In this document: piece after piece, positions 18,356-63,816 of the stretch
Numbering within the stretch: the first letter of the stretch is position 1
Layout: each line of letters opens with the position of its first letter
NCBI GenBank assembly: GCA_022646745.1
Contig: CP060262.1
Location: 3,897,188-3,961,187 of the forward strand
Origin: Planctomycetales bacterium
GTDB taxonomy: Bacteria > 4484-113 > JAFGCY01
Length of the DNA stretch: 64,000 bases
Direction of reading: 5' to 3'
Program-made: the position numbers and the translations under genes
Notes under the pieces: model-generated
Told to the model about the DNA's origin: nothing
Seen by the model: the letters and a program-made list of their open reading frames with translations, nothing else
Database searches by the model: none

Positions 18356-18371
18356 GTATTACCATACTGCC

Positions 18372-19094: not shown

Positions 19095-19095
19095 G

Positions 19096-20691: not shown

Positions 20692-20693
20692 AC

Positions 20694-21392: not shown

Positions 21393-21431
21393 TTGTCAGG
21401 AATATACCGACCGAAGGTCAGATTGTCATCA

Positions 21432-43913: not shown

Positions 43914-43934
43914 CATGCTCGTCTGTGGGCGGGA

Positions 43935-46764: not shown

Positions 46765-48179
46765 GACAATCAGCAACGGGGATGGATACAGCAGGCACAC
46801 AACCTGGAGCGAGGAGCCGCCCACGCTGGCAGCTGATAGACCGCGCGCTGGATCTGCTGGTTGTCGGGCTGCCCCTGCTGCTGGCGCTTGCCTGTGTGAT
46901 TGCCAGTTACGTCGTCAAGCCCTACCGCATGGATACCGGAGATCCCTACCTGAACTGGTATGGCAACCAGCTGATGGACAGTGCCGACCAGGTGCTGGCA
47001 ACGGATCCGCTCCTGCCGGATTACTACAGCACAGGCGACTACTATCTGTTGCCTGATTTCCGCAAGCGCTTCGAGGAAGCACGAACCTCTTTCAGTGGCG
47101 ATCCACGCTACTGGATGGAGTATGCCGATCTGACACGCGCCGAGATCTGGTTCGGAAGTGGTGACAACTATTCCGAACAGGACTCGGAAGCGGCTTATGA
47201 GGCAGTGATGCGTGAGGGCCTGTCCAGCCCCGGCGCCAGCCCTGAAATGTTCATCCCGCTTGAGTGCCGCCCGATCGAGACCTCAGTGCTGGCGGACGGT
47301 GTGACCCGCGGCAACAAGGAAGGCCGACCGAATTTCCTCTGGAACCATCCGGAAGAAGTGACAGCAATGCTTGAGCAGGCCGGACGGCTGCCGGTGCAGG
47401 ATACCGTCAGCCGCCTGCTGCAGGCAACATACTGGAGCTGCGGCGGGGAGTACGGGCGCGCCCGTGAACAGCTGCTGGCAATCCGGGACCAGCCGGGCCC
47501 TTCCCTGCCTGACATGAATGAGCTGATGATCAAGTCGGCAGCCAGACCAAACACGGCGGTCATGGCCAGCCGGGGCTGGTCCATGCAGTATCCGTCCAGC
47601 ATTTACGTGGTGAATTCTGACCTGCGCAGCGGACTGGACGAGCTGGCGGAACAGGCCTGGCTGGCCGGAGACTACGAGGTGATTGACATCCTGCGCCAGT
47701 CCATCATCGATGGCAGGGGCGCTTCCGGCACGATCCTCGGCCAGCTGATGACGACTGTCAACCTCGGCAAGGTTGACAGCCGCATCTACAAGGTCACTAC
47801 CGACCCTGCTGAACTGTCAATGATGCTAGAGCTGCGTGCCCGCAAGAATGTGTGGCGAGACAAGGTCCGCTCAACAATCGGGCGGGAACTCAGTCCCTGG
47901 GTGGTCGGACGCTGCACGCTGGAAGGTGCCCTCAGCGGTGGACGGGGCTTTCACAGCGGATACGGTATTGCCTATGGCCGTCTGCTTCAGGATGAGTATG
48001 CCGACCTGCTGGGCATCCAGCCCCAGTGGGATGCGGTTGCGAATTTCAGTTACAGCAAATTGGCCTTCCCAGACGGCTGGACACCATCTGAATCGGACCT
48101 GCGGATTGCCGAGGGAGAAATTGCCAACAATCCCGGCGAGCGCCTGTACCGCGAGGTTTCCGACGGTGAGCAACCGTGA
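46761..48179 (+). CDS. bitopic membrane-anchored protein, family B paralog 2
   Basis: ATGA overlap; anchor IDRALDLLVVGLPLLLALACVIA paralogous to preceding gene. Confidence 0.7.
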   Translation: MRQSATGMDTAGTQPGARSRPRWQLIDRALDLLVVGLPLLLALACVIASYVVKPYRMDTGDPYLNWYGNQLMDSADQVLATDPLLPDYYSTGDYYLLPDFRKRFEEARTSFSGDPRYWMEYADLTRAEIWFGSGDNYSEQDSEAAYEAVMREGLSSPGASPEMFIPLECRPIETSVLADGVTRGNKEGRPNFLWNHPEEVTAMLEQAGRLPVQDTVSRLLQATYWSCGGEYGRAREQLLAIRDQPGPSLPDMNELMIKSAARPNTAVMASRGWSMQYPSSIYVVNSDLRSGLDELAEQAWLAGDYEVIDILRQSIIDGRGASGTILGQLMTTVNLGKVDSRIYKVTTDPAELSMMLELRARKNVWRDKVRSTIGRELSPWVVGRCTLEGALSGGRGFHSGYGIAYGRLLQDEYADLLGIQPQWDAVANFSYSKLAFPDGWTPSESDLRIAEGEIANNPGERLYREVSDGEQP

Positions 48180-49384
48180 GTGCCAACTGGACCAGCGCAA
48201 TCCGTGGCCTGCGTGACAATCCCCTGCCGGCACTGTGGCAGCTGCAGGAACTGCGCCAGCACGGGCAGCGCAGCCGCTGGCTGTCCAGCCCCGGCTATAT
48301 GCTGCTTGCCATCCTGGTCAGTGCGCTGGCCTGTTACCTGCTGCTGCTGCAACTCGGAATGGCAGGTGCGGTCTGGCAGGAGGGAGCGCACCCGGTGATT
48401 CGCCACAGCCTGCGCGGGATGGGCTTTGGCGTGTCCCTGGCTTTCACCGGAGCCATCTCCTTTCTACTGGCAATGGCCCGGCTGCACCATGGAATCCTGT
48501 TCTGCGGCAGCCTGCTGGCAATGCGGGACAGCCGCCGGCGCTGGGCCTTTGATGAGGTTGTGGCATCAACTGAGCTTGGCAACCGGGAGATCATCGCCGC
48601 GGCGATCTGGCATTCGCTGCGCCGCGTGATGCCACCACTCGCACTCAGCCAACTGGTGTTTTCGGTGATGTCCGGCATCTGGGTGGCTGACATGCTGCAT
48701 GACCACTCCCTCCCGGATGCAGCATGGCGCTGGCTGCTGCCCCTACTGTTCCTGCTGGGCATGCTGCTGCTGTCCACGCTGGCTGTCGCCACCCTTTGCG
48801 CCCTCTCGATCTCCACCAGCAGTCCTGACCAGCACCCGGCCCAGCCAATGCTGCTGGCAGCGAATGCCTACCCGCTGCAACTGCTGATGCTGGCGGCCCA
48901 GCTTCTGTTGCCGATCTGGCGTCCAGATGAGTATTACACCGAAGCCCCATCTTTACTGGTGGTGAATCCACTGGATGTCGTCTCGCTGGGGTTCGGAATG
49001 CTGATGCCCGTCATCATGGTCCTGCTGCTGGAACTGATGTGCCGGGCTGGCAACACCCGAAGTTATGCGGCCTTTGCCCTGCTGCCGGTGGTCGGCCTGC
49101 TGCTTGCCTTTGGCTGGGGCGTGATGTCAATTGTCTATGACGAGCTGCTGTCCTCCACATATCCGCTGGATGGACCCCTTTTCAGCCTCGCATCCAACTG
49201 GTGCATCTTCCCGTTGTACCTCAGCTATCCACTGCAGGACCTGGCCCGCAACGGTATTCCAGGCTATGCGATTCACTGGATGAGTCTCTGCCTGTTTCCC
49301 GTACATTTGCTCCTGCTCCTAGGTGCCCTTTACAAATTTGCGCAACGAGCAGCCGGGAACCTGGACCGCGAACTGCGGGTCTGA
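48176..49384 (+). CDS. polytopic membrane protein, family A paralog 5
   Basis: GTGA overlap; N-terminal RDNPLPALWQLQELRQHGQRSRWLSSPG; about 8 predicted TM helices. Confidence 0.7.
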   Translation: MSANWTSAIRGLRDNPLPALWQLQELRQHGQRSRWLSSPGYMLLAILVSALACYLLLLQLGMAGAVWQEGAHPVIRHSLRGMGFGVSLAFTGAISFLLAMARLHHGILFCGSLLAMRDSRRRWAFDEVVASTELGNREIIAAAIWHSLRRVMPPLALSQLVFSVMSGIWVADMLHDHSLPDAAWRWLLPLLFLLGMLLLSTLAVATLCALSISTSSPDQHPAQPMLLAANAYPLQLLMLAAQLLLPIWRPDEYYTEAPSLLVVNPLDVVSLGFGMLMPVIMVLLLELMCRAGNTRSYAAFALLPVVGLLLAFGWGVMSIVYDELLSSTYPLDGPLFSLASNWCIFPLYLSYPLQDLARNGIPGYAIHWMSLCLFPVHLLLLLGALYKFAQRAAGNLDRELRV

Positions 49385-49476
49385 ACCAGCGCTTCTCCCG
49401 GGATTGTGGCGGGAACCACTGCTCCGGGTTAGAATCAAACGGCTGAAATCTGTTTCGATACTTGGGGGTATCGGAT

Positions 49477-52400
49477 ATGCGAACTGGTACTGCAGGCCAT
49501 AAAAGAATGTGGCCAATTGTCGTGCTCGCCCTTGCATTGAGTGCCTGCGGCGGCAACATGGGTTCGGGCATTGTCCCTGGACCGGCACAGATAAGAAATG
49601 AAACCGCACCGGTCTATCGCAATGCGATTGGCGAATCCGAAATCGGCACACTGAATGACTGGCAGCGAGCGCTGCTTGCCGACCCAGGCTGGAATGAAGC
49701 CCCTGCTCCGGTTGAGCGGGATGGGTTTAACGCGCTGCCTGCTCCGAGCACTGAACTGCTATTGGAGCTGCTCCAGCAGCAGGCAGTTGCAGGCATAGAT
49801 CAAGCTGGATTCGTGCGTGGCACTTCCGCGCTTGACCCGGTTCCGGTCGGCGCGTACAAGCCTGGCGATGTTGATGTTAATGGCATTCCCGCTTTCGGCT
49901 GCAATGCCGACCCGGCAATGATCGACATTTACCACATTGAGGATGTGATTGGCAATTACAGCCTGGATGCTGATCTGCAATTGCAGTCACCAGTTGGTTA
50001 CGTTATGTATGGCGTACCTACAGTCAACCATTTCAACAAGCATGGAGACTCAGCCTCGATTCCGGCTGCCATTTCACAGGTGCTGGCCCAGCAGGACGAC
50101 CAGTCCCAGAACATTGCGATCAGCAGCATTGCTTATCTCGCTGCGCAGGATTTCTCCGTCTCACCCGGTGAGGGCAGTGGCCCTGGAGGCCCGAATGACT
50201 GCGGCCTGGCGGCATACAGTATCCGCAATGCCTACTGGATGAGCTGGAATGAGAAATCCTTCGCTCTGCCTTCGGGCCAGACCACTGCGCTATTCAACAT
50301 TTTGCCTGGTCCGTTGGATGAAGCACAGACCGGGCTAACCAACCCCATCACTTCCACCACGGCGGGCCAGCAGCCCTTCCTGTTCGGTTCCTGGATCGAG
50401 CATTATGGCAAGTCCTACATCGTCGGCATAGAATCTGCCAACAGCGGTTGCCAGATGTTCGATGACATTGCCAACACCGAATGGCGCCACAGGGTGATCG
50501 GTGGCGACCAGCCCTACCCGAACATCCTGCACAACCCGCTGTACGGCATCCTTGCGGAACGCTGGCAGCAGTCAGCCATTCCGGATACGGAGGAATGGAA
50601 CAGCCAGCTCGGCTGGCCCGTGGCCCGTCCCTTTGCCTACAACAATGGAGCGCAGCTGCTCAGTGCGGACGGCCCCTACTATGCATTTGGACAGTTCTTC
50701 GAGCGGGGATTCATCTGGTGGCTGGACTACGACCAGCAGGCCAATCCGACAGCAAGCGACCGGGCAATCCTCTACACTTTCGATGGCAGCAACACATTCT
50801 GCGATGGCACGTTTACGCGCAGCTACCCTTACCTGCATTACAACAATCAAGCAAGTGCCCCGCTTGCCGCTGACCTGCTGGTGGACCAGTATCTCGCGGG
50901 TGGCTCCGACTGGCGCCAGATCAGCCAGCAGCCTGATGGCCGCCTGCTGCGGGTTCCCTGGACTGACGAGGGAGCCAGCCAGCGCAGTGCCACTGTCCGC
51001 GCCCTTGCCAACCCCAGTGGAGGGGTGACCATCAACGGTGACGACATCGGCCATCCGGAATGGGGCAAGGGCCTGTACCGCAGCTGCACATGGCTGTGGC
51101 AGGATGGCACTGTCACCCCTGCCGGCATGGATTACGACCCGGCGCAGTTTGACATGCAGCACACCTACCTTGGCGACGGAGCTGGCATTGAAGCCATCCG
51201 CCGCATCAGGGCGCAGGTGGTGGATGCCGACGGCAACATCGCCTATGTGGACAGCCTGCCGCTGCAGATCGGCGACGGCAGCCCGGGGGCCGCCCCGGCA
51301 CTGAGCGTGCTGCGGGCTGACAACGGCATGTTCCCGGATGGCTACGAAGCCCTGATTGATGATCTCGGTGAACTCGGCCTGCCCTTCAGCACCCGCAGCT
51401 GGGAAGCGGGTATCGAACAGCAACTCGCAGACGAGGGCTGCCAGCTGGCAATCTGGTACGACGGCGGACCGGGCAGCCAGGCTGAACTTGGAAACACACA
51501 GGCCGGCTGGACCGCTGGGGAAAGGGACTCACTGATCGGCCTGCTGGAGAAGGGCATTGACGTGCTGCTGCTCAGCCAGGATGTCGCTGACAACCCGGAC
51601 CCCAACCCGGGAAACTCATGGACAGACCGCTTCGGTATGCAGCTGCTGCCCGGCGGCCAGTCCGGCACCGGCCTGCAGGGTGCATGGGGGCAGTTGCCCG
51701 GTGGCCGGATTGCCGATTTCGGCGGCGGATGGCTTCCCTCGTCCGCCCAGTACATGTCTGCCGCTTCACTGGCTTCGCTCGAGGCGATCTGTGGCGCCGT
51801 GGAACGCGGCTCCGCCGATGATGGTACCCAGCCGATGCTTGTGTCAGTCGACCCCGCCCTGCCCGTCTGCGGCATTGGCAGCGCCACCAACTGGCCGGGA
51901 GCCAGCCCCGCATTCACTGCGGGCAGCTTCCTGTCTTCAACATCCACAGGTCCGGCCCAGGCCCTGCTGAGCTGGGGCAGCAGCGCAGCTCCGCATTCCA
52001 TTGATGGCAACCTGCCTGACCCGGTCATCGCCGATGGCAATGCGCACCTGTGGGTCTATGGCCTCAGCTGGGCAGCCAGCTCTCCCGTAGGCTACCAGGG
52101 CAGCGATCGCGTGCCCGTTGCCAGGAGCAGGATGCTTCAGAATATCCTGAGCTGGCTGGACAATGATTCCCGCTACTTTGACCCGCTGCGACCACGTGGC
52201 TATTCAGGTGAGCCGGAAATCCTCTCGGTCACGCCATACCTGATCCAGTCAGACGGGCAGATCACTCCCGGCTCGACTTCACATACTGGAGTTGACTATC
52301 CGGACCCGAGCGGCAGCGATGTGCTGCGCAGCAGCCCCAACCTGCCGGATGAGAAGCACCTCGTTGTCAGTCCGGAGCATGACTCGGATGAGGACGGCAT

Positions 52401-53574
52401 CAATGCCAATGACCTTGACCTGCAGTTCCCCTTCTACGCCTACATCACCTGGGATGACAGCAAGGGGCAGGCAAACGGCGTGATCGAACCTGAAGAGATC
52501 CTCGACATCAGCTATGGCGGCCTGCTGCTGAAGGACGATATTGACTGGCAACGGGCCAATCCCAATGCCGGCAATTATGTCCAGCCGAGCCAGCTCAACA
52601 TTCAGCGTCCAGTGGCCGGTTACTACCTGTCATTCACGGGCGACAGCGGCGATGAGCTGCGCGCTTCCTATGGCTCTGCAGCGCCGCAACTTGTTACAAC
52701 TCAGTACAGGCCAAAGCTGCTTGTGGAGGCAGTTGCCCACTGGCCGGCAGATGCAGCCTACGGTGGCCAGACACCAGTGCTGCGCTGGAGTATGTTCCCT
52801 GGCCATAAGGTCCAGTCTCGCAACTACATCACCGGCACCAGCTGGGTTGATGGATATGCCGGTGAATCCCCCATCCCCTGGGGCTTCTTTGTCGGAACGA
52901 ACGATATCGACCCCGGCATGAAGAATTTCAGCGATGCAGATGTACTTCGCCTGCATGGAGATTTCAGCCATGTCGGCGATGGCAATGGCCGCAGCATGCT
53001 GTTTGATTACGCTACGGTACTGGCCTTTGACGGTGACCTGGATGATGACAATGCTGCCGGCACGGCAGACAAGATTCCGATTCGTGTCCGCCTGATCACT
53101 GATTACGAAGCATATGGCAAGTATGCAGCTGAGGGCGGGACCTGGCCTGACCAGTTCCCCCCGGCGGACAGCTTCATTGAAGGAGGCTGCTATGTATCCC
53201 TTGCGGGCAAGGGCAACAGCTGCATGGTTGTGATGGACAATCCGGAGAAGTACGATCCCCATGAGCTGATTACCAAGGATGAAGATGGCCAGTATAGATT
53301 TGACGTCGAACTGCACTTCATCGTCGACTGCGCACCCGGACCGCTGGATGTTGATTTGGACTGGAATTACGATGGAATTGCATGGGGCAACTCCGGAAAC
53401 ACGCAGTATGTAGGCGTTTTCCCAGTCGAAGGCGAACTTGATGAAACAGTGAATGTGGATTTCACACCGGCAGGTGGACCTGGTACCTACTATTTCTCAA
53501 TCAAGGTTTCTGATGGTTCCGTACCTTCCCAAACTGCAACCTACACCTGGCCGGTTCCAGTTGTAATAGAGTAG
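49477..53574 (+). CDS. giant surface lipoprotein with LGFP-like repeat, paralog 1
   Basis: Lipoprotein signal MRTGTAGHKRMWPIVVLALALSAC; LGFP-like segment QLGWPVARPFAYNNGAQLLSADGPYYAFGQFFERGFIWW; shares many blocks with 54019-59040. Confidence 0.8.
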   Translation: MRTGTAGHKRMWPIVVLALALSACGGNMGSGIVPGPAQIRNETAPVYRNAIGESEIGTLNDWQRALLADPGWNEAPAPVERDGFNALPAPSTELLLELLQQQAVAGIDQAGFVRGTSALDPVPVGAYKPGDVDVNGIPAFGCNADPAMIDIYHIEDVIGNYSLDADLQLQSPVGYVMYGVPTVNHFNKHGDSASIPAAISQVLAQQDDQSQNIAISSIAYLAAQDFSVSPGEGSGPGGPNDCGLAAYSIRNAYWMSWNEKSFALPSGQTTALFNILPGPLDEAQTGLTNPITSTTAGQQPFLFGSWIEHYGKSYIVGIESANSGCQMFDDIANTEWRHRVIGGDQPYPNILHNPLYGILAERWQQSAIPDTEEWNSQLGWPVARPFAYNNGAQLLSADGPYYAFGQFFERGFIWWLDYDQQANPTASDRAILYTFDGSNTFCDGTFTRSYPYLHYNNQASAPLAADLLVDQYLAGGSDWRQISQQPDGRLLRVPWTDEGASQRSATVRALANPSGGVTINGDDIGHPEWGKGLYRSCTWLWQDGTVTPAGMDYDPAQFDMQHTYLGDGAGIEAIRRIRAQVVDADGNIAYVDSLPLQIGDGSPGAAPALSVLRADNGMFPDGYEALIDDLGELGLPFSTRSWEAGIEQQLADEGCQLAIWYDGGPGSQAELGNTQAGWTAGERDSLIGLLEKGIDVLLLSQDVADNPDPNPGNSWTDRFGMQLLPGGQSGTGLQGAWGQLPGGRIADFGGGWLPSSAQYMSAASLASLEAICGAVERGSADDGTQPMLVSVDPALPVCGIGSATNWPGASPAFTAGSFLSSTSTGPAQALLSWGSSAAPHSIDGNLPDPVIADGNAHLWVYGLSWAASSPVGYQGSDRVPVARSRMLQNILSWLDNDSRYFDPLRPRGYSGEPEILSVTPYLIQSDGQITPGSTSHTGVDYPDPSGSDVLRSSPNLPDEKHLVVSPEHDSDEDGINANDLDLQFPFYAYITWDDSKGQANGVIEPEEILDISYGGLLLKDDIDWQRANPNAGNYVQPSQLNIQRPVAGYYLSFTGDSGDELRASYGSAAPQLVTTQYRPKLLVEAVAHWPADAAYGGQTPVLRWSMFPGHKVQSRNYITGTSWVDGYAGESPIPWGFFVGTNDIDPGMKNFSDADVLRLHGDFSHVGDGNGRSMLFDYATVLAFDGDLDDDNAAGTADKIPIRVRLITDYEAYGKYAAEGGTWPDQFPPADSFIEGGCYVSLAGKGNSCMVVMDNPEKYDPHELITKDEDGQYRFDVELHFIVDCAPGPLDVDLDWNYDGIAWGNSGNTQYVGVFPVEGELDETVNVDFTPAGGPGTYYFSIKVSDGSVPSQTATYTWPVPVVIE

Positions 53575-53625: not shown

Positions 53626-54018
53626 AAAGGTACTTGAAATTTGATTAATGTGTACGTATACTGTTTCCATAGCTTCGGCTGCGCTCTGGGAGCCAGCTGG
53701 AAGACACGCGCAATTGAGGAAGTAGGAATTGCTTGATCAGCATTCGAACTTTCGGATCACAGGGGCTGCTGTGAACCTCGCAGTCCTTTGCGCGCATATT
53801 TACTACCCCGGCACCGCATGCAATTGCCGTGCTGCGACACATGCTTCCCAGTACTCCGGCCGTCCTGGACCGGTCGAGATAATCCGGCTGAAACATACTG
53901 CATGAGGAGGTATCTGATGTCCAGTCGTGGCAGCAGTGTTGCCACTCGAAACCCTGCCTACCGGGCGGGTCAATTGCGCTTATTAATTATTTCCATACCA
54001 ACATCTATAGGAGTTATC

Positions 54019-57000
54019 ATGAAGACTCATGTGAACTGGTGTAAGCATCTCGGGCTAACGCTTGTGGCGCTTACGGTAGTCTTCGTAGCAGCTTCCTGCG
54101 GTGGTAGTGGTAGCAACGGGCTCACTTCAAATGTTGAGCTGGGAACTACCACTTCTGTTGCCCCGGGCAATGATGTCCGCGGCAATGTTTCCGCTGAGAT
54201 GACCGTCTCTGAGAACGAGATCGGCCAGCTCAGTGCGGAGCAGCAGGCTCTGCTTTCAGACGCGGGCTGGAACCAGCCCTACATCGTCCCCAAGGCCGGC
54301 ACCCCGATCCAGGGCCCGAGCCATGAGATGCTGATGGCACAGCTTCGTGAGATGGCTGAGCGCGGCGTCGAGATGCTGCCCCGCGGCGTCGAGGGAGAAG
54401 GCACGAAGGGAGCCAGCTGGCTTGACCAGCGCGGCTTCAACCCGGGTGTTGACAGTGGCCTTGTGAAGGGCCAGTACAAGCCCGCCGACACCGGCGCCAA
54501 CGGCGTGCCGGACTTCGGTTGCAACGCCTCCGGTGCACTGATGGCTGACAACGGCCAGTCCGACATCGAGGACGTGATCTTCGCCTACGGCGGCAGCATG
54601 CCGGCCCAGGCGATCAGCTGGGTGGCTGAGGGTCTTTCGACCATCAACCACTTCAACAGCGTCGGTGGAGGTGGTGACGATGCGTACACCGCCGTTTACC
54701 AGCTGTTCGCTGACAGCGAGACCGCGAACCCGAACAACCAGGGCAACAATGACATCGGTGAGATCGGCTACCGTGCCGACCTCGGCCCATATGGCGTCGG
54801 TTACGGCCAGGGCAGCGGCCCCAGCGGCACGCTGTGCGACGGAACCGCCTACGGTGTCCGCAATGCGTTCTGGATGACCTTCAACGAGAAGTTCTTCGCC
54901 CTGCCGAGCGGCCAGGCGACTGCCCTGTACAACGTGCTGATCGCCCCCAGCGGTGATGAGGGTGCGGACCAGGTCAGCCCGATGGACACCTCCGCGAACT
55001 TCCAGACCTTCTACTTTGGCAACGTGTCCTCCTGCTATGGGGATGCGATGATCGTCGGCATCAACGCCGCTGACAGCGGTTGCGACATGTTCGACGAGGC
55101 CTCCAATGCGCCGTGGCAGGACCGTACGGCGGATGGCAACAGCTACCCGAACATCCTGCACAACCCGATCTTCGGCGTGATCCTGGCCCGCTGGGCCGGC
55201 GGCAACGCCAACTCGGACAGCCAGTTCTTCGGCGACGGCAGCTTCCCGAGTGCGGCAAGCATCGTCGGCTGGCCCGTGGCCCGTCCGTTCGCATACAACA
55301 ACGGCGCCGCGCTGCTCAATGCCAACGGTGCCTACTACGCCTTCGGCCAGTTCTTCGAGAAGGGTTTCATGTGGTGGATCGACTACGACCAGAACAGCAA
55401 CCCGACCGCGAGCGACGAAGCGCAGATGTACGTCTACGATGGCAACAACACCTTCTGCGAGGGTGAGTACTCCAAGGTCGAGCCCGACGTGTTCTACGGC
55501 GGCAGCGGCGACCTCGGTGTCGGCGTGACCGTGGACGGCGTGCGCTACGGTGCCGGCGACTGGTCCGCCCCGCAGCTGTCCGACGACGGTACCTATTACC
55601 AGATCGGCATGCTGCTGGACGAGAACACCGGCATCAGCAGCGTGACCATCGCTGCCAGCGCGCACGGCTTCGGCGGTGTGACGGCTGATGGCCTTGACAT
55701 CGAGCACCCCGAGTGGGGCGCCTGCCTGTACAAGCACAGCACATGGTCATGGCGTGACGGTACGGTCACGGCAGCCGGCACGGCTTTCGATCCGAGCCAG
55801 TTCGCCCGTACCCACACCTACAGCAGCAATGCGATCAAGACCAATGTCGAGGGTGTGTACACGATCCGTAACCAGGTCGTGGACGCCGATGACAACATCG
55901 CCTACGGTGACAGCCTTCCGATGCACCTCGGACACGGCGGCGCCGGTGGTGGCGGTGGCGACACCGAAGTCTGGGTCATCCGCAACGACGGCGGTGACTT
56001 CCAGCTCAACCTCGACGCCCTGACCGGCGACCTTGACGCCCTTGGCGTTGGCTACAGCGTGGTCGACTACAGCGCAACCGTCGCTGACGACTTCGCCGCC
56101 AACCCGAACGCGAAGGTCGCGATCTGGTACCGTGGTGGACCGGGTGGCGCGGGTGAGTCCGCGACCTACACCACCGCCTGGACCAGCGGTGAGATGGACA
56201 ACTACATCCAGCTGATGAGCGACGGCTTCGGCGTGATGCTGATGAGCCAGAACCACGGCTACGATGGAGACCTGTTCTTCACCAACGGCTGGAGTGGCAT
56301 CTACGGTTATGCGACCCTGCCGGCCTCCGTCCCGGATGCCGACCGCCGCATGCCCTGGGCCTCCAGCCTGTGCACCGATGACGGTATCGGTTTCGGTGGT
56401 TCGCTTGGTTTCATCCCGACCGCCCCGAGCAACTTCATCGGTAACCCGAGCGGCGCTAACTTCGGTGCCGACGGTACCAACGCCGCGGAGCGCTACACCG
56501 GTAGTGGTTCCTCGGGTGAGCTGCCGATCAGCTTCGGCATGGCAACCGGCCGCCAGTACTGCGGTATCGGTTACTACAGCTCCTTCTTCGCGGGCTCCTG
56601 CGCAGGTCCGGCCTTCCGTGCCGGTATCGGCCACCAGCCCAACGCGCTTGGCTTCGACCTGGGCTTCCTGTCCTGGGGTAACAGCCAGGCCCCGGATGCC
56701 AACATCGGCTTCTTCCCGAGCTACAGCCACAGCTTCGGCACCGGCAAGGTGTGGAACGTTGGCTACAGCTGGGCAGGCACCAGTGTGACGGCTTCCGCTT
56801 CCGGCACGATGGACCGCGCCGACCTGCTGAACAACATCCTCGGTTGGCTGGATGACAGCCTGACCTTCGGTGGTGGCGGCGGCGGTGGCGCCGGCTTCGA
56901 GGAGTACGATGGTCCTCCGGAGATCGTCTGCGTGACCCCGATCGCCTGGGACAAGGTGAACGGCGCCGTGACGCAGGGTACCGCCGGTGTGGGTGGCCAG

Positions 57001-59040
57001 AACTACCCCGACCCGAACGGTTCCAACGTCTTCGGTCCGGATGTGACCCCCGGCTTCGATTACGCTGTCGAGTACGACACCGGCGTCCGTACCCCGGGCG
57101 ACGATGACGGCGGCGTGAATGGCAACGACATGGACTTCCAGTTCCCGTTCTACGGCTTCCTGCAGTGGGACGACACCCTCGGCGCCATCCCCGGCGACGT
57201 GGAGGCTGCTGAGATCATCGATGTCAACTACAGCGGTATCGCCCTGAGCGACATCTCCGCTGACTGGACCAAGTTCTCCGCCCCCTACGGTGGTGTGTTT
57301 GATCCTTCCGCCCTCGGCCTTGGCCGCGCAGCCGCGTGGTTCCTGACCGAGACCGACACCTTCGGTAACATCAACACCGCCAGCTACGGCGATGCCTTCG
57401 GCCCGAACCTGGTGTTCAACAACGACACCGACCTGGTTGCCACCGAGGCGATCGCGCACTGGGCACAGGGCACGATGTACGGTGGCTCCCCGGCGTACCT
57501 CGCCTGGGCGATGTATCCCGGCCACAAGTCCGTCCAGTACGACAACTCCGACACCCCCGTGGGTTACTACGGTGAGGGTGGCATCCAGTGGTACGAGTTC
57601 ATCGAGGACCACGACATCCAGGTCGGACGTGACCTGTATGCCTACCTGCGCAGCGACTACTCCTTCACCACCCCCGGTGAGGGCCGCACCGTGGACTTTG
57701 ACTACGCAGTGGTCAAGGGCTGGGATGGCGACCTGAACCGTAACGGCGTGATCAGCGAGGCCGCTGACAAGTTCCCGGTCCGTGTCCGCTTCTTCACCGA
57801 TGTGGATGCCTACGATGATTACTTCGATGACCTGAACGGCTACCCGAACTTCTGGCCTGATGGCGACTCCTTCATCGAGGGTGGTTGCTACATGGTGGAC
57901 GAGGGCGACCCGAACTATCCGGTTGCAATCTTCGATGATCCGGACCTGGATGATCCGATGGCTACCGTCACCGGTTCCGGCCCGGCCTATGATGTGACCC
58001 TGAGCTACATCATCGCCAACGGCTTCCCGAACTACGACATGAGCCTTGACTGGAACTACGACTTCATCTCCTGGGGCAACAGCGGCAACGTGATCAATGA
58101 CTATGTCAGCCACAATGCCAACGGTGCCTGGAGTGATGTCGTCAGCGTCGACCCGACCGCTGCCGGCGGCGATGGAGACTACTTCTTCGCCCTCAGGGTC
58201 GATGACGGTGACGTGCCCTCCGCCAGCGCTAACTTCTTCTGGCCCGATGCGGTGCCGCTGAAGCCCGGCCTGAGCTATGCGATCGTCGATGACAACCTCA
58301 ACGCCCTCGACGACAGCCCGGCCCAGATGCTGGCTGCGATTGACAGCTTCCTGCCCGGCCAGACCGTGATCCCGCGCGCCAGCGTCACCGCCGGCAGCGA
58401 CCTCTACGGTTATGACCTGGTGATCTGGCTCACCGAGCATGAGTGGTATGGCCTTGGTAGCCCGGGTATCCTGGCTGCCGAGATGACGATCCTCAAGGAC
58501 TACCTGAACAATGGTGGTTCCGGCGGGACCGGTGGTAACCTGATCCTCTTCATGCCCGGCGAAACCGCCTGGGAGACCTTCGACGTCGGTCTGGACATGC
58601 ACATCAACTACATGGGTGGTGGTACGTCCTTCATGAACGAGCGTCACCAGTTCGACAGTGAGTGGTACAACCAGCACATCACCAACGCCGGCCTGCAGAA
58701 CGGACCCGGTGGATCCGGCATGATGATGGTTGACCATTACAGCCAGGTCGGCCCGAACCCGGGTGTCGATCCCTGGTACACCAGCGGTTACTTCGACACT
58801 CCGGCCCTGACTGCCGGCGCCGTCCAGGCGTCCTGGCTGTTCAGCACGGACCGTTCCGACGTGACCAAGTTCGACAAGAACGGCGGCGGCACCCCTGGTG
58901 GTGTCTGCGTCTGGGTTGGCCACTACTTCAAGGGCTGCATCCCCTACTTCGGCGGTGACATCTTCACCGGTGTTGCCGGAACGCAGGGCCAGTACATGCA
59001 GAACCTGATCAACTGGACCGATCCGACCCTGCTTCCGTAG
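54019..59040 (+). CDS. giant surface lipoprotein with LGFP-like repeat, paralog 2
   Basis: ATG 54019 with AGGAG upstream; lipoprotein signal MKTHVNWCKHLGLTLVALTVVFVAASC; LGFP-like segment IVGWPVARPFAYNNGAALLNANGAYYAFGQFFEKGFMWW; track ORF from 53788 is an upstream extension. Confidence 0.8.
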   Translation: MKTHVNWCKHLGLTLVALTVVFVAASCGGSGSNGLTSNVELGTTTSVAPGNDVRGNVSAEMTVSENEIGQLSAEQQALLSDAGWNQPYIVPKAGTPIQGPSHEMLMAQLREMAERGVEMLPRGVEGEGTKGASWLDQRGFNPGVDSGLVKGQYKPADTGANGVPDFGCNASGALMADNGQSDIEDVIFAYGGSMPAQAISWVAEGLSTINHFNSVGGGGDDAYTAVYQLFADSETANPNNQGNNDIGEIGYRADLGPYGVGYGQGSGPSGTLCDGTAYGVRNAFWMTFNEKFFALPSGQATALYNVLIAPSGDEGADQVSPMDTSANFQTFYFGNVSSCYGDAMIVGINAADSGCDMFDEASNAPWQDRTADGNSYPNILHNPIFGVILARWAGGNANSDSQFFGDGSFPSAASIVGWPVARPFAYNNGAALLNANGAYYAFGQFFEKGFMWWIDYDQNSNPTASDEAQMYVYDGNNTFCEGEYSKVEPDVFYGGSGDLGVGVTVDGVRYGAGDWSAPQLSDDGTYYQIGMLLDENTGISSVTIAASAHGFGGVTADGLDIEHPEWGACLYKHSTWSWRDGTVTAAGTAFDPSQFARTHTYSSNAIKTNVEGVYTIRNQVVDADDNIAYGDSLPMHLGHGGAGGGGGDTEVWVIRNDGGDFQLNLDALTGDLDALGVGYSVVDYSATVADDFAANPNAKVAIWYRGGPGGAGESATYTTAWTSGEMDNYIQLMSDGFGVMLMSQNHGYDGDLFFTNGWSGIYGYATLPASVPDADRRMPWASSLCTDDGIGFGGSLGFIPTAPSNFIGNPSGANFGADGTNAAERYTGSGSSGELPISFGMATGRQYCGIGYYSSFFAGSCAGPAFRAGIGHQPNALGFDLGFLSWGNSQAPDANIGFFPSYSHSFGTGKVWNVGYSWAGTSVTASASGTMDRADLLNNILGWLDDSLTFGGGGGGGAGFEEYDGPPEIVCVTPIAWDKVNGAVTQGTAGVGGQNYPDPNGSNVFGPDVTPGFDYAVEYDTGVRTPGDDDGGVNGNDMDFQFPFYGFLQWDDTLGAIPGDVEAAEIIDVNYSGIALSDISADWTKFSAPYGGVFDPSALGLGRAAAWFLTETDTFGNINTASYGDAFGPNLVFNNDTDLVATEAIAHWAQGTMYGGSPAYLAWAMYPGHKSVQYDNSDTPVGYYGEGGIQWYEFIEDHDIQVGRDLYAYLRSDYSFTTPGEGRTVDFDYAVVKGWDGDLNRNGVISEAADKFPVRVRFFTDVDAYDDYFDDLNGYPNFWPDGDSFIEGGCYMVDEGDPNYPVAIFDDPDLDDPMATVTGSGPAYDVTLSYIIANGFPNYDMSLDWNYDFISWGNSGNVINDYVSHNANGAWSDVVSVDPTAAGGDGDYFFALRVDDGDVPSASANFFWPDAVPLKPGLSYAIVDDNLNALDDSPAQMLAAIDSFLPGQTVIPRASVTAGSDLYGYDLVIWLTEHEWYGLGSPGILAAEMTILKDYLNNGGSGGTGGNLILFMPGETAWETFDVGLDMHINYMGGGTSFMNERHQFDSEWYNQHITNAGLQNGPGGSGMMMVDHYSQVGPNPGVDPWYTSGYFDTPALTAGAVQASWLFSTDRSDVTKFDKNGGGTPGGVCVWVGHYFKGCIPYFGGDIFTGVAGTQGQYMQNLINWTDPTLLP

Positions 59041-59107: not shown

Positions 59108-59344
59108 CTACACGTATAAGCTCCTTGCGTTGCCCAGTGCAGAAGGGCCAACTTCTCTAGTCCCAGACTGGTCTCAGCTCAGTTGGCAAACCTCAGACCC
59201 TCCTGAAACTTCTCGGAATTCTACTAATTTTCGAATTTTTTCGAAATATCTGTTTAGAACCTCCCGGGGGCGGGAATTACAGACGGTTTGGAAAAGGAAG
59301 CAGGAACTTCCCCGAACTGAATAATCTAATCTGAGGTGACTGAC

Positions 59345-59989
59345 ATGGAAGCTAAGAAGAACATCAACGGAAACGACAACAAGCAGAACAGTGGCGTGAT
59401 CATCGTGATCCGCAACCTGATGGCCCTGGTGGTCATGCTGGCCCTGGGCCTCCTGGCCTCCTGCGGTGGCGGCAGCTCAGCGATGGCTGAGCTGGATGCC
59501 CCGGCGGATGACGCCAAGGCGGTGGACTACACGATGGCCCCCTCATTGGATGAGGTGGTCGCGGACCGCGAGGCCAGCTCCAGCTGGTACGTCGCCACCA
59601 GCGATGCGGCCTACATCGACGGCATCGACTACCTCTACCAGCTGCTGACGGACGGCAACGGCAAGTACCAGTTCGTGATGAAGGTCACCAACAACTCCAG
59701 CCAGGCCCGCCACATCACCTACAACAGCACCAAGCGCGCCGACTTCTCGATCGTGAAGAACGGCCAGGAGCTGTACCGCTGGAGCGAGGGCCGCTTCTTC
59801 GGGTTCGTCTTCGAGACCCGCACGCTGAGCCCGTACCAGACCTTCGAGTACAAGGCTGACTGGAACGGACGTGACCGCCACGGCAACCCGATCAGCGGCA
59901 ACGTGATGGCCAACGGCTTCCACACAAGCGTCAGCAACCCGGCCAGCCTCGGTCAGGTGGCCTACCTGAACGGCAAGGTCAGCAACTAG
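59345..59989 (+). CDS. BsuPI-like (intracellular proteinase inhibitor fold) lipoprotein
   Basis: Lipobox LLASC; C-terminal region with BsuPI-like pattern (YQFVMKVTNNSSQARHITYNSTKRADFSIVKNGQELYRWSEGRFF...TLSPYQTFEYKADW); ATG 59345 with GAGG upstream. Confidence 0.55.
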   Translation: MEAKKNINGNDNKQNSGVIIVIRNLMALVVMLALGLLASCGGGSSAMAELDAPADDAKAVDYTMAPSLDEVVADREASSSWYVATSDAAYIDGIDYLYQLLTDGNGKYQFVMKVTNNSSQARHITYNSTKRADFSIVKNGQELYRWSEGRFFGFVFETRTLSPYQTFEYKADWNGRDRHGNPISGNVMANGFHTSVSNPASLGQVAYLNGKVSN

Positions 59990-60011: not shown

Positions 60012-60040
60012 AAAAGCCCCGCCACGGCGGGGCTTTTTGT
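60012..60040. terminator. bidirectional rho-independent terminator between convergent genes
   Basis: AAAAGCCCCGCC-ACG-GCGGGGCTTTTTG: GC stem flanked by A-run and T-run. Confidence 0.8.
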
Positions 60041-60060: not shown

Positions 60061-60666
60061 CTACTCAGCGACAGCTGGCTGCAGGTTGAAATGTTCCTTG
60101 TCCTGCAGCATCCGCACACCCGGCGGCCGGTGGAAGTACCGGCGCTGGAAGAAGGCGATGCTTCCGTCAGGATTCACACCGACAACGCTGCGCTCCTGCA
60201 GCACGGTCCCGCCATCCTTCGAAGCGCAGCCGTACTGCTCAGAGATCTTCAGCCCGGGATCGTACAGGACGGGAACAGTAATCCCCTCTTCCTGCATGAA
60301 CTGCCTGGTTTCAGCCTTGTCGGCTGGATTGATGGCGAAAATCCTGATCCCGAGACCTTCCTTGTCCAGGTCATCCTGCAGCTTCCCCAGCTGCCTGAGC
60401 TGGTTTGCACTGTTGGGCGTATTGTTCGCCGGATAGAAGAACAACACCACCGGACCGGCCTGCAATGCTTCCGAGAGTTCAAATGCAGCTCCATCCTGGT
60501 CAGTGGTCGAAATGGCCGGAGCCTTCTGGCCAGCTTCAGGATGGACGTAACCTTCCTTCTCCAGCTTCGCTTCATTGACGGCGATCTGGTGCTTGTAGTC
60601 CGGCATCATGCAGCTGCTGAGCATGCCCAGGGCCGCCAGCAACACTATTAATAACAGGCTTTTCAT
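60061..60666 (-). CDS. peroxiredoxin-fold (AhpC/TSA/BCP-like) lipoprotein lacking the peroxidatic cysteine
   Basis: Lipoprotein signal MKSLLLIVLLAALGMLSSC; Prx-like VLFFYPANNTPNSANQL where the canonical T-P-x-C has Ser in place of Cys. Confidence 0.6.
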   Translation of the reverse strand: MKSLLLIVLLAALGMLSSCMMPDYKHQIAVNEAKLEKEGYVHPEAGQKAPAISTTDQDGAAFELSEALQAGPVVLFFYPANNTPNSANQLRQLGKLQDDLDKEGLGIRIFAINPADKAETRQFMQEEGITVPVLYDPGLKISEQYGCASKDGGTVLQERSVVGVNPDGSIAFFQRRYFHRPPGVRMLQDKEHFNLQPAVAE

Positions 60667-60763
60667 GAAGGCAAAGTATAACAGACCAGACCATCCCACC
60701 TGGCTCAAACGGTTTTCCCACTGTTATCCACACATGCGACCGGATTGAGCATTTCCATGACAG

Positions 60764-60830
60764 AATGTGGTTTCCACATTGCAATTTATTTAGCTATAAT
60801 CTAACTGGGGTACATTTAACTGTCGGTTAA
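60764..60830 (+). promoter_or_regulatory. candidate promoter with two flanking palindromes upstream of NrtR-like gene
   Basis: Palindrome AATGTGG-TTT-CCACATT (60764-60780); TATAAT (60795-60800); palindrome TTAAC-TGTCG-GTTAA (60816-60830). Confidence 0.35.
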
Positions 60831-60848
60831 CTCAATCGACAATTATGT

Positions 60849-61565
60849 GTGCACCAGATGACACACCAGGTGGGTCAACTGGACTACACGGGGCAAGTTA
60901 CAGGCGGAATCGGGATTTCGGTGGTGATCATCCTGCTCACCATCCGTGATGATGCGCTCAAGACCCTGCTGGTCCGGTCGGACGGCGGAACTTGGCGCCT
61001 GCCCTCCGGTTCACCGGGAGTTGCGGAGCCGCTCAGGCGGGCGGCTGAACGAGTTGTGCGGGAGTTTGCCACGATCAGCGTGGATTACCTCGAACAGCTC
61101 TATACCTTCGGGAACCGCATCCCCGATGGACAGCAGAGGGTGATCGAGATCGCCTACTACGGTCTGGTTCCTCCTGACCTGATTCCCGGTGTGGAGCAGC
61201 ATGCGGCCGGCCACCTTGCCTGGTTCTCTGAAGAGGACGAACCGGACTTGCAGGGTGAGCATGGCCTGATCGTGCGTGTTGCGCGCAACAGGCTGCAGGG
61301 CAAGCTGGCCTATACCGCGGTCGGCTTTGAGCTGCTGCCTGAGCTGTTCACGATGGCTGAACTGCAGAGGCTGTACGAAATCATCCTCGGCAGGGAGCTG
61401 GACAAGAGGAACTTCCGCAAGAAGATCCTCGACCTTGGCATCGTTGAGGACACGGGTGAGTTCCGTGCCGCAGAACACCAGCGCGGGAGACCGGCGGCGC
61501 TTTACCGCTTCCAGTCCCAGGTGTTCCGCAACCTCGAGGCCAAGCGGGATATCCTTGCGTTTTAA
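60849..61565 (+). CDS. Nudix-domain transcriptional regulator-like protein (NrtR-like: Nudix fold + C-terminal winged-helix region)
   Basis: N-terminal Nudix-fold pattern (ISVVIILLTIRDDALKTLLVRSDGGTWRLPSG); C-terminal basic segment; GTG start. Confidence 0.55.
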   Translation: MHQMTHQVGQLDYTGQVTGGIGISVVIILLTIRDDALKTLLVRSDGGTWRLPSGSPGVAEPLRRAAERVVREFATISVDYLEQLYTFGNRIPDGQQRVIEIAYYGLVPPDLIPGVEQHAAGHLAWFSEEDEPDLQGEHGLIVRVARNRLQGKLAYTAVGFELLPELFTMAELQRLYEIILGRELDKRNFRKKILDLGIVEDTGEFRAAEHQRGRPAALYRFQSQVFRNLEAKRDILAF

Positions 61566-61575
61566 GGAGCGACGG

Positions 61576-62871
61576 ATGTACGAACAGGATGTCAAACTCG
61601 CCAGGATGCTGGTGGAGAAGATCAAGGCCCTGCGGTCTGAGGAGGACTCAGTCAAGCATGACCTTGACCAGGCCCGCCAGGAGCTCTCGAGGGTTGAGCA
61701 GATCCGTGAGGAACGCGATGCCTACCTGGCGATCCTCTCTGAGGCCGCTGACCTGCTGGACAGCAAGGACCTCGTGGTGGACAACCCGGACACCACTGAG
61801 CAGAAGGAACAGGTTGACAACCTGGAATTCAAGCTCGAGGAGCTTGATGAGGAATCGCAGAAGTACAGCCGCCTGATCGACGCCCTGCGCGAGAAGGCCC
61901 CGCAACTGTTTGAGTCCGTCAATGAGGACGATCCGGATGCCGCCCCCGAGCTGAGTGAGGAAGCCCGCGAGGCCAGCAGCGAGGAGACGGTTGCCAGCGC
62001 GGAAGTCGCTGATGCCGTCGCCGAGCCGGTTGAGCAGGATGAGGATGAAGAGGAAGCCGGGGAGGAAGTGGCAGAGGCCGGTGAGGCTCCGGCCGAAGAG
62101 TCAGCCCCCGAGGAGGAGCCTGCCGTCGAGGTGAACGCAGGTGAGGACCAGTCCGAAGACCAGCAGGAAGAGGATGATGATGAAAGTGCTGAAGATGAGC
62201 AGCCCGAGCCCGAGACGCTTGAGGTGCACGTCAGCAGCAACGGCCATGCCGGTGATGCCGAGCATGTGAATGGCAACGGCGCGCACGAAGCCGTTGCCAT
62301 CGACGAGGACGACTCCGCCGACATGCCTGCCGCGGCTGCCGAGGCTGAGGACCAGCCGGCCCCGGGTGAGGCCACCCAGGTAGAAGCCACCGTCGTCAAG
62401 GTGGCGGTTGAGAGTCCCGAACGCACGCTGAGTCGCTTCAACCTGGACCACCTGAAGAAGAAGGAAGCCTTCACATTCGGCCGTGGTGCCGCATACATCG
62501 TCGACGGGGACAGCGTGCTTGATCGCCTGCCCTACTACGATTACAGCCTGCGTGGCGTGCTGGAAGCGCAGACCCGTGATGAGCTGGCGCGTGACATCGA
62601 CGTGCTGTCAACCGAGCTGCACGGCAAGTTCCACATCGTCTACAGTTCACAGTACAACCCGAGCATCCAGCTCGGCGAGCATGTCAGCCTGAGTTGTGCG
62701 AATGGCGAGGGAGGCAAGGAAGCAGCGGATGATCACATTCGTGAGTTGGTCAGTGAACTGATCGCCAAGCACACCTGTGTCTGCGTGATCACTGGCGACG
62801 TGGCCCTTGCTGACAGCGTCCGCGGCCAGAGCATCCACATCCTGCAGCTGCACGATTTCTTCCGCGCCTGA
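61576..62871 (+). CDS. coiled-coil / acidic low-complexity protein with C-terminal YacP-like NYN (PIN-like) nuclease domain
   Basis: ATG 61576 with AAGGAG upstream; ~150-aa D/E-rich linker; C-terminal AAYIVDGDSVLDRLPYY ... CVCVITGDVALADSVRGQSIHILQL. Track ORF from 61276 is an extension overlapping the NrtR-like gene. Confidence 0.6.
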   Translation: MYEQDVKLARMLVEKIKALRSEEDSVKHDLDQARQELSRVEQIREERDAYLAILSEAADLLDSKDLVVDNPDTTEQKEQVDNLEFKLEELDEESQKYSRLIDALREKAPQLFESVNEDDPDAAPELSEEAREASSEETVASAEVADAVAEPVEQDEDEEEAGEEVAEAGEAPAEESAPEEEPAVEVNAGEDQSEDQQEEDDDESAEDEQPEPETLEVHVSSNGHAGDAEHVNGNGAHEAVAIDEDDSADMPAAAAEAEDQPAPGEATQVEATVVKVAVESPERTLSRFNLDHLKKKEAFTFGRGAAYIVDGDSVLDRLPYYDYSLRGVLEAQTRDELARDIDVLSTELHGKFHIVYSSQYNPSIQLGEHVSLSCANGEGGKEAADDHIRELVSELIAKHTCVCVITGDVALADSVRGQSIHILQLHDFFRA

Positions 62872-62919: not shown

Positions 62920-63816
62920 GTGCACAGACTGCTACACATCGCCCTGCTGCTGAGCCTGCTGGCAGCAGGCTGCTACAAGCCCGAGGCTGAATCCCACGCC
63001 CTCGGCTCCGAGAAGAACCCCATCACCATGGCCTTCGTGCCCTCGACAGAGGCGGAAAAGGTCGTCAGCTCCGGCGACGAACTGTGCGAGCTGCTTGGTG
63101 AGCAGACGGGACTGCACTTCAAGTCAATGGTGGCAACCTCCTACGTAGGCATCGTCGAGGCAATGGCTGCTGACAAGGTACAGGTCGGCTGGCTGCCTCC
63201 GATGGCATACGTCTTCGCGCATGAGCGCAACGGCGACCAGGCGATCCTCAAGGTGGTGCGCCACGGCAAGAGCAGCTACCGCGGACAGATCCTCGTTGGC
63301 ACTGACAGCGGCATTGAAAGCATCGCCGACCTGAGGGGCAAGCGCATCGCCTACCCGGAGCATGCTTCCACCAGCGGGCACCTCTACCCGGCCACACTGC
63401 TGATCGAGGCCGGGCTGGACCCCGAGGTTGACCTGGAGGAAAGCTACAGCGGCAGCCATGACGCGGCCGTGCTGGCACTGGCCAAGGGCAGCGTTGACGC
63501 CGCCTGCTGCTTCGAGGATGCCCGCCAGAAGCTTGTTGACAACGGCATGGATGACCTGATGCAGACGACGCGCGTGCTGGCATACACGCCTGAGATCCCC
63601 GCTGACAACGTGTCGGTCAGCGCCGGGCTGGACCCGGAACTGACGTCGAAGATCAGCAGCGGGCTGCTCGCGCTGGCAGCCAGCGAGGAAGGCAAGCGGG
63701 TGCTGTTTGAGCTGTATGAGGTGGAAGGGCTGGTCCCGGCGGCTGATGCGGACTACGATCCGGTGAGAAACATGGCGAACCTGCTCGGCCTGGATGTTGA
63801 AAAGGAAATTGACTGA
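62920..63816 (+). CDS. phosphonate/phosphite-type ABC transporter substrate-binding lipoprotein (PhnD-like)
   Basis: Lipobox LLAAGC; PhnD-like blocks (ITMAFVPSTEAEKV, GWLPPMAYVFA, LRGKRIAYPEHASTSGHLYP). Confidence 0.7.
   Translation: MHRLLHIALLLSLLAAGCYKPEAESHALGSEKNPITMAFVPSTEAEKVVSSGDELCELLGEQTGLHFKSMVATSYVGIVEAMAADKVQVGWLPPMAYVFAHERNGDQAILKVVRHGKSSYRGQILVGTDSGIESIADLRGKRIAYPEHASTSGHLYPATLLIEAGLDPEVDLEESYSGSHDAAVLALAKGSVDAACCFEDARQKLVDNGMDDLMQTTRVLAYTPEIPADNVSVSAGLDPELTSKISSGLLALAASEEGKRVLFELYEVEGLVPAADADYDPVRNMANLLGLDVEKEID

Follow-up and report, generated by a model that had tools for sequence, protein, structure and literature searches.

The nrtR operon and its divergent neighbour

The window, that is, the whole 64-kb stretch of DNA analysed here, carries a gene for an NrtR-family regulator at 60858..61565 on the plus strand (235 aa from its ATG; assigned through Pfam, PDB and alignment). 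The gene that is co-transcribed with it at 61576..62871 on the plus strand has the Shine-Dalgarno sequence AAGGAG, and its product combines a coiled-coil, an acidic linker and a C-terminal YacP-like NYN domain (Pfam NYN_YacP, 7.1e-06, 26.6 bits against a cutoff of 24.6). PADLOC and PDB searches of the operon proteins returned nothing informative on this NYN-like domain. The third gene of the operon encodes a PhnD-like (Phosphonate-bd) periplasmic binding protein (62920..63816, plus strand; Pfam 5.7e-64). On the minus strand lies an AhpC/TSA (Prx-like) gene, here called prx (60061..60666; Pfam AhpC-TSA 1.5e-21 and ORF list), whose product starts with MKSLLLIVLLAALGMLSSC, a lipoprotein-type signal. 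Neither the operon nor the annotated ORFs of the window include NAD genes.

The assignment of the first gene to NrtR-like Nudix regulators, originally made from the sequence alone, agrees with Pfam: NrtR_WHD matches over its full length (2.4e-27) together with AraR_C, and NUDIX gives a weak match of 0.0016, below the cutoff. Among solved structures, the product matches AraR (5bs6, 2.2e-27) and the Shewanella NrtR (3gz5, 4e-19), with NadQ also matched, and it aligns with both 3gz5 and 5bs6 across the Nudix domain, supporting the Nudix fold. The winged helix is intact and its helix LDKRNFRKK is invariant in the homologue alignment. The Nudix box is degenerate (G-x5-E-x7-R-V-V-R-E-F-A-T-I), the glutamates of REUxEE being partly lost. 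The NCBIfam equivalog model NtrR gives it 105 bits where 400 are required, so the product is regarded as a member of the family and not as an orthologue of the characterised ADPR-responsive repressor.

A protein search identified close homologues of the regulator at 75-93% identity. Their orthologous loci (L001, L004, L005/L006, L007, L008, L092/L093 and L094) provide, together with the window, a set of 8 promoters. Wherever the contig extends far enough, the locus order is prx on the minus strand, followed by nrtR, the NYN-like gene and the PhnD-like gene on the plus strand. The divergence from the Prx-like gene, pointed out in the sequence-only reading, is kept in the 6 orthologous loci that hold the upstream gene (L001, L004, L005, L007, L008 and L092). 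The NYN-like gene follows nrtR in every related operon and the PhnD-like gene takes the same place in all related operons that reach far enough; with these two as the operon partners, no linkage to genes of NAD, ADP-ribose or pentose metabolism was found. A scan of genome contigs yielded, among the matches listed, nearly exclusively homologues of about 40-46% identity, with L009 (56%) as the single closer one. A metagenome scan using the NYN-like alignment added 8 distant operons and no further close orthologues.

The orthologue alignment also bears on the divergent gene. In each of the 6 orthologues containing the gene, a putative extended -10 element of prx, TGTTATACT on the minus strand (60675..60683, within 60664-60684), stops 8-9 nt short of the start codon, and AAGTATAACAG is nearly invariant beside this ATG in the same number of orthologues. 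The element TGTTATACT may serve as the prx promoter, and since it ends 8 nt before the ATG, the prx mRNA is probably leaderless. Between prx and a convergent BsuPI-like gene (59336-59989), a GC-rich, strong hairpin flanked by A/T runs (AAAAGCCCCGCCACGGCGGGGCTTTT, 60012-60037) is probably a bidirectional terminator.

Promoter elements and the two palindromes

For the region 60764-60830, the sequence-only reading described a promoter-like region with two palindromic operators, one at the -35 position and the other across the likely transcription start. Its promoter component is borne out by comparison. TATAAT is read directly at 60795-60800 and is present in 8/8 close orthologues, and GCTATAAT recurs upstream of nrtR genes at 52-60% identity (L089, L090, L091, L096, L097 and L100). 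The -10 region GCTATAATCT (60793..60802, plus strand, with the hexamer at 60795-60800) was delimited by the orthologue alignment: nine of its ten positions (60793 and 60795-60802) are identical in all 8 sequences, C60794 is found in 7/8, and the preceding base is T or G, giving (T/G)GCTATAATCT. A consensus scan paired this box with the -35-like hexamer TTTCCA (60771..60776, plus strand) over an 18-bp spacer, with a score of 10/12 for TTTCCA-18-TATAAT, and found 2 promoter-like sites where 0.5 were expected. The promoter alignment shows that TTTCCAyATT is kept in most orthologues. The hexamers, a spacing within 16-18 bp, the retention of the -10 box in orthologues and its correct placement before the gene are those of a sigma-70-type promoter. 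What was flagged is a genuine promoter, conserved among relatives and preceding a regulator gene of the NrtR type. Transcription would start at about 60807-60810.

The alignment additionally reveals an upstream box, CATTTCCATGACAG (60750..60763, plus strand), containing a TTTCCA that recurs in direct orientation 19 bp downstream as the -35-like hexamer. This box has 0-2 mismatches in L004, L005, L007 and L092 and is missing from L001 and L008. Mean pairwise identity amounts to 0.84 in the -10 region and to 0.85-0.90 between 60838 and 60882, compared with 0.22-0.33 for the unconstrained intergenic background; for the gene it averages about 0.77, with 0.63-0.8 in much of the coding sequence and 0.92-0.94 in the part coding for the winged helix. 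Two orthologues show local rearrangements at the promoter. In L007 (3255-3285), the -10 region is duplicated (GGATATAATCTTATAATCTA), resulting in two TATAAT boxes, and L001 carries a 5-nt insertion after the -10 box. Due to these two changes, the distance from the -10 box to the invariant box described below ranges from 11 to 23 nt.

Palindrome 1, AATGTGG-TTT-CCACATT, occurs exactly at 60764..60780 (no strand assigned), and its proposed location over the -35-like position was confirmed by the consensus scan, in which it overlaps the hexamer TTTCCA. Its symmetry is held in 2 of the 7 orthologous promoters that cover the site, namely the window and L092. The L092 variant, AATATGG-TTT-CCATATT, is perfect through a symmetric change, and the per-element alignment assigns it 6/7 through a gap in the left arm. 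The score falls to 5/7 in L004 and to 1-4/7 in L001, L005, L007 and L008. At positions -5 and +5, all four combinations of bases occur, and the two arms are therefore uncoupled. Only the right arm is conserved, as the TTTCCAyATT that holds the -35-like hexamer. When the 191-bp intergenic region was subjected to 5000 dinucleotide shuffles, 10% of these contained a perfect inverted repeat with a spacer of 3-11 and arms of 7 or more, and palindrome 1 is consequently marginal with respect to chance (P~0.10). It could well be a by-product of the conserved -35 region and a lineage-specific left arm.

Palindrome 2, TTAAC-TGTCG-GTTAA, is likewise found exactly at 60816..60830 (no strand assigned). It had been placed across the likely transcription start and lies at about +9 to +23, downstream of the start deduced above. 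Its left arm belongs to the invariant box and its right arm to 60824-60836, the most variable segment of the orthologue alignment, so that full symmetry (5/5) is restricted to 2 of the 8 promoters, the window and L094; elsewhere 1-4/5 positions match. Among the same shuffles, 79% had a perfect inverted repeat whose arms reach 5 or more, and a repeat of this size is expected (P~0.79) and not above chance. Palindrome 2 would then be a by-product as well, formed by the invariant box and a fortuitous match in a variable loop.

The operator claim was further followed through the search for additional copies that accompanied it. Both palindromes are present in the 64-kb window as single copies, and no more copies were found in about 45 kb of orthologous flanks; looser matches in the window are at or near the shuffle expectation. 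When mismatches were allowed, searching the window with the two palindromes, TGTCG-N11-CGACA and ACATTTAACTGTCGG recovered the original sites only. The 12-mer and the leader model introduced below are, like the dyad and the palindromes, single-copy in the window and the orthologous flanks. Absence of the palindromes from orthologous promoters, together with a lack of further genomic copies, had been named beforehand as the observation that would speak against operators. With symmetry preserved in 2/7 and 2/8 promoters, respectively, and without further copies in the window or these flanks, the two palindromes are unsupported as operators, and by its own yardstick the operator reading appears largely to fail. 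A plausible-looking operator call is thereby corrected: palindromes seen in a single genome are mostly not kept, and the conserved signals adjoin them.

Known and predicted sites of the family offer a second standard. Operators of NrtR proteins have been described as 21-bp palindromes with a GT-N7-AC core (PMC2330246), the Mycobacterium NrtR autorepresses through a 23-bp GTTTTCGA-N7-TCGAAAAC site (PMC6800001) and the Bacteroides thetaiotaomicron AraR (BtAraR) utilizes tandem 21-bp sites 3 bp apart (PMC4666351). A canonical motif, TTAGTGTA-N5-TACACTAA, was derived de novo from 94 related loci. It is located at -55 to -100 from the start in many relatives of 40-50% identity, often as two copies about 24 bp apart. 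Its carriers are found among L010-L088 (e.g. L016, L021, L022, L023, L031, L039 and L071) and span Chloroflexota, Gammaproteobacteria, Planctomycetota and DPANN archaea. Some copies are placed far upstream or downstream of nrtR, presumably at regulon genes. The canonical motif was found neither in the window (within 5/16 mismatches) nor in any locus of the clade of 52-93% identity (within 4/16 mismatches).

Against this standard, the model in which an NrtR dimer autorepresses the promoter from both palindromes can be weighed. In its favour, both palindromes are exact in the window, palindrome 1 resembles known NrtR sites in its TGT-N7-ACA core geometry and shares A at +/-8 with the canonical sites, a GT-N7-AC core is published for the family (PMC2330246), the L092 variant changes symmetrically, and autorepression and paired operators are typical of NrtR-family proteins (PMC6800001, PMC4666351). 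The resemblance of palindrome 1 to the canonical motif nevertheless covers 8/16 positions and leaves mismatches at the other 8/16. The uncoupled -5/+5 bases and the scores of 1-4/7 in four orthologues argue against palindrome 1 as an operator. Palindrome 2 is expected by chance, its right arm is variable and scores 1-3/5 in four orthologues, and its AA-N7-TT geometry differs from the family core. Moreover, the two palindromes are unrelated in sequence and lie 51 bp apart, in comparison to about 24 bp for tandem sites, and no other copies were found in the window or the orthologous flanks. Taken together, this makes the two-operator model improbable.

Sites for other regulators were tried and rejected. 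A Rex/CRP-type site would need TGTG-N8-CACA, and the spacing here is N5; LexA (CTGT-N8-ACAG) and IHF sites were discarded on spacing as well. A DnaA-box cluster was dismissed as TTATCCACA at 60724 is not conserved in orthologues. This perfect DnaA-box-like 9-mer (60724-60732), which lies 46 bp upstream of the similar GTTTCCACA inside palindrome 1, is probably due to chance.

The predicted leader hairpins and the start codon

The invariant or near-invariant elements of the orthologue set are (T/G)GCTATAATCT, ACATTTAACTGT at 60812-60823, CGA at 60837-39, TGTG at 60848-51 and nearly all of 60862-60883. As far as the alignment can tell, what is kept in relatives is thus the -10/-35 region, a 12-nt box and two leader hairpins, and the flagged palindromes mostly are not. 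Folding of the leaders of the 8 orthologues with RNAalifold and ViennaRNA gave hairpin 1 followed by hairpin 2 in every case.

The 12-nt box ACATTTAACTGT (60812..60823, plus strand) is identical at all 12 positions in 8/8 sequences. It is itself near-palindromic (ACAnTTAAnTGT) and forms the left arm of hairpin 1; a second copy was not found in the window or the orthologous loci. The box contains UUAACU, the hexamer that also forms the core of 'epsilon', a translational enhancer in phage T7 gene 10 (UUAACUUUA). This likeness may be relevant to a start that lacks a Shine-Dalgarno sequence, or it may be a coincidence. Hairpin 1 (60810..60852, plus strand) is predicted by minimum-free-energy folds in 8/8 orthologues, with a loop of variable sequence. 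Within it, the dyad TGTCG-N11-CGACA (60821-60841) is complete (5/5) in 5 of 8 orthologues. In L092, the TGTCG/CGACA dyad is lost, and ACUGUGU pairs with GCACGGU in an alternative inner stem that retains the same invariant left arm. Overall, 89% of the cells of hairpin 1 are paired, with 0 double compensatory changes. The invariant left arm, as opposed to a variable right arm, suggests recognition of the sequence rather than of pure structure. Hairpin 1 was also flagged by a scan for intrinsic terminators and rejected as such, given its AT-rich stem and interrupted U-tract, and an upstream ORF starting at ATG 60845 was rejected as it is not kept in L001 or L008.

Hairpin 2 (60854..60882, plus strand; folds and alignment) is a 29-nt imperfect palindrome, CCAG-A-TGAC-A-CAC-CAG-GTG-G-GTCA-A-CTGG, that encloses ATG 60858-60860. 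In the window, 11/13 arm positions pair, and 7/8 orthologues have 10-11 Watson-Crick pairs plus 0-1 G-U pair. Most changes in the stem preserve RNA pairing: one compensatory double change turns G-C into A-U in L008 (G60A with C76U), and A-U becomes G-U at column pair 53/67 in 4 sequences (A61G) and at 48/72 in L004 (A56G). Pairwise identity reaches 0.90 over this hairpin, against the intergenic background of 0.22-0.33. The codons right after it vary freely. Dyads of the quality of hairpin 2 number 9 in the window and about 3 in shuffles.

ATG 60858 is the likely start of the nrtR gene, with GTG 60849 as an alternative. The ATG is kept in 7/8 orthologues, and the resulting MTHQV aligns with MSRQL/MKRQI of distant homologues. 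No Shine-Dalgarno sequence was found before nrtR, in contrast to the next gene with its AAGGAG. The exception is L008, a 75% orthologue, in which ATA replaces the start codon and hairpin 2 is followed by a 1-nt deletion. In this locus (3995-4075), the sole upstream canonical start is a GTG in the loop of hairpin 1, from which a different N-terminus would result. Since the L008 block is in another frame or untranslated, the constraint acts on nucleotides and not on protein.

This observation bears on the simplest explanation of the region, a promoter only, in which conservation beyond the -10 box would reflect N-terminal coding, the initial transcribed region and close kinship of the genomes. 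The set comprises 8 related sequences, 60858 onward is coding in 7 of them, and the excess of comparable dyads in the window means that a hairpin of this grade is not very rare. Yet identity among these genomes has dropped to 0.22-0.33 in other parts of the intergenic region and to 0.63-0.8 over much of the coding sequence, the 12-nt box stays invariant without being coding, the block is kept in L008 despite a different frame and the lost ATG, and the codons immediately following hairpin 2 are free to vary. A promoter without a functional leader is accordingly considered very unlikely.

Several measures bear on how far the structure can be read. In the window, hairpins 1 and 2 each have a z of about -3.7 to -3.9. 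For the leader structure, 93% of the cells are paired, with one double-changed pair and several changes from A-U to G-U among the 8 sequences. The observed covariation scores, which draw on 8 sequences and a single double compensatory change, are reached by 49-64 of 500 shuffles, and the stem positions, being mostly invariant, are uninformative on structure. In L008, two pairs of hairpin 2 are broken and its hairpins are no more stable than shuffles. Rfam returned no match at E up to 10 in 60600-61100, and at the gathering threshold it annotated only tRNAs, located in distant loci, when the window and 8 related loci were searched. A covariance model of the leader (R1) matched the orthologous leaders only and nothing else in the window or the other loci.

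Proposed RNA-level control and the wider NrtR family

The reading preferred here takes 60750-60885 as a sigma-70-type promoter followed by a structured leader of about 50 nt that acts at the RNA level; as a composite, it is given about even odds. RNA polymerase would use TTTCCA (60771-76) and TATAAT (60795-800) and start near 60807. The transcript of the nrtR / NYN-YacP-like / PhnD-like operon would then fold into two hairpins, of which hairpin 1 would be 5'-proximal, with the invariant box ACAUUUAACUGU as its left arm, and would serve either in protection of the 5' end or as a sequence-specific recognition site. The stem of hairpin 2 would hold the AUG, keeping translation of the regulator low in comparison to the downstream genes that bear a Shine-Dalgarno sequence. 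Action at the RNA level is the most likely mode of the leader on the sequence evidence, and the nrtR promoter itself may be autoregulated.

Bacteria are known to mask start codons within leader hairpins and to stabilise mRNAs through stem-loops at the 5' terminus. The predicted leader resembles start-occluding leaders in the pairing of the AUG within a conserved hairpin, the missing Shine-Dalgarno sequence and a further hairpin near the presumed 5' end. Unlike described leader RNAs, it has no Rfam match and displays weak covariation.

A DNA operator in the region remains likely a priori, because NrtR-family proteins are autorepressors (PMC6800001), and the conserved blocks could themselves be diverged operators, which makes up the main rival to the preferred reading. 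Here, the ACATTTAACTGT box with TGTCG-N11-CGACA and/or the 29-bp palindrome would block open-complex escape or elongation, and the protein bound to them would be NrtR or another factor; both parts of this explanation are possible, if rather unlikely. The blocks are invariant or nearly so, dyad-symmetric and positioned right after the -10 box, and the 12-mer is invariant as a sequence, which fits recognition by a protein. The element is also confined to this promoter, as expected of an autoregulatory site. Furthermore, family motifs are highly variable, such as the GTTTTCGA-N7-TCGAAAAC site of Mycobacterium, in which TCGA half-sites are likewise present (PMC6800001, PMC2330246). The geometry is nonetheless not that of the family: the dyads downstream of the -10 box are TGT-N15-ACA with arm centres 15-16 bp apart, and family sites are 21-bp TGT-N7-ACA palindromes (PMC2330246). 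In addition, the sequence opposite the invariant box in the dyad is variable or missing in L008, L092 and L094, substitutions in the 29-bp palindrome are mostly compatible with G-U pairing and not symmetric, and L092 re-registers its stem, which an operator of fixed spacing would not tolerate. Finally, no motif was found to be shared with the operons of 52-60% identity despite a nearly identical DNA-binding helix.

Characterised systems show both sides of this comparison. The M. smegmatis nrtR-nadABC operon and the NrtR promoters of Rodionov et al. 2008 are governed by the same type of regulator, Nudix-like with a winged helix, and as in these autoregulated promoters, dyads lie beside the regulator's own promoter and palindrome 1 shares TGT-N7-ACA. 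They differ from the present locus, which has no conserved 21-23-bp palindrome and no NAD genes, and whose conserved elements are situated in the transcribed leader. The AraR of B. thetaiotaomicron (5bs6) is the best solved-structure match and a precedent within the NrtR family for control of functions other than NAD metabolism. Its tandem sites resemble the tandem canonical sites of the relatives; the window is without tandem 21-bp semipalindromes.

It is conceivable, though at this stage improbable, that the ACAUUUAACUGU box and the two hairpins form a regulatory leader RNA that is specific to the clade and recognised by one of the operon's own products. The candidate recognisers, equally speculative, would be NrtR, bound to the transcribed region, or the YacP/Rae1-like NYN nuclease, which would act in cis on the mRNA that encodes it. 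On that reading, an NrtR-family operon with no relation to NAD metabolism would be under post-transcriptional control.

The operon persists across NrtR identities between 93% and about 52%, with differing upstream neighbours. Homologues of 52-60% identity (L009, L089-L091 and L095-L102) present nrtR followed by NYN-like and PhnD-like genes, and often then by DUF58/VWA. Their operons keep GCTATAAT and have leaders of 55-125 nt, in which a GC-rich two-tier hairpin, GCGCA-GGGGC-CCGGn..nCCGG-AC-GGCGC, starts 8 nt after the -10 box. The stability of these distant leaders is not above that of shuffles, and an nhmmer profile built from them detected no homology to the window beyond the -10 box. The operon looks like an uncharacterised NrtR-family regulon. 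It delineates, among uncultivated bacteria, a clade of NrtR-like regulators that are without the canonical operator and without linkage to NAD genes, whose genes always share a transcript with those for a putative RNase of the NYN type and for an orphan PhnD-like binding protein, and that have a conserved leader with hairpins and no Shine-Dalgarno sequence. A leader that proves functional would represent an uncommon RNA-level control of an NrtR-family regulator; otherwise, the promoter is an ordinary one. As it stands, the region is ordinary regulatory DNA with a modestly unusual leader.

The distant operons also differ from the window in what precedes them. In L090/L091 (1-3800), a radical SAM / SpoIID / unknown / HhH-GPD block lies directly upstream of the nrtR operon, with a tRNA in between. 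In the window, which contains no tRNA, the block of the same composition is located at 17153-22094, about 38 kb from the nrtR operon. The intervening gap holds a hybrid histidine kinase, an M6 peptidase, seven paralogues (five of them with a PQQ-like beta-propeller) and very large proteins without Pfam matches. It includes a run of large plus-strand ORFs of 392 to 1750 aa at 38864-59040; nine ORFs at 38864-53574 have no Pfam match at 1e-5, and the largest one (1750 aa, 53788-59040) lies outside that scan. The content of the gap of about 38 kb suggests a large insertion or rearrangement in the window.
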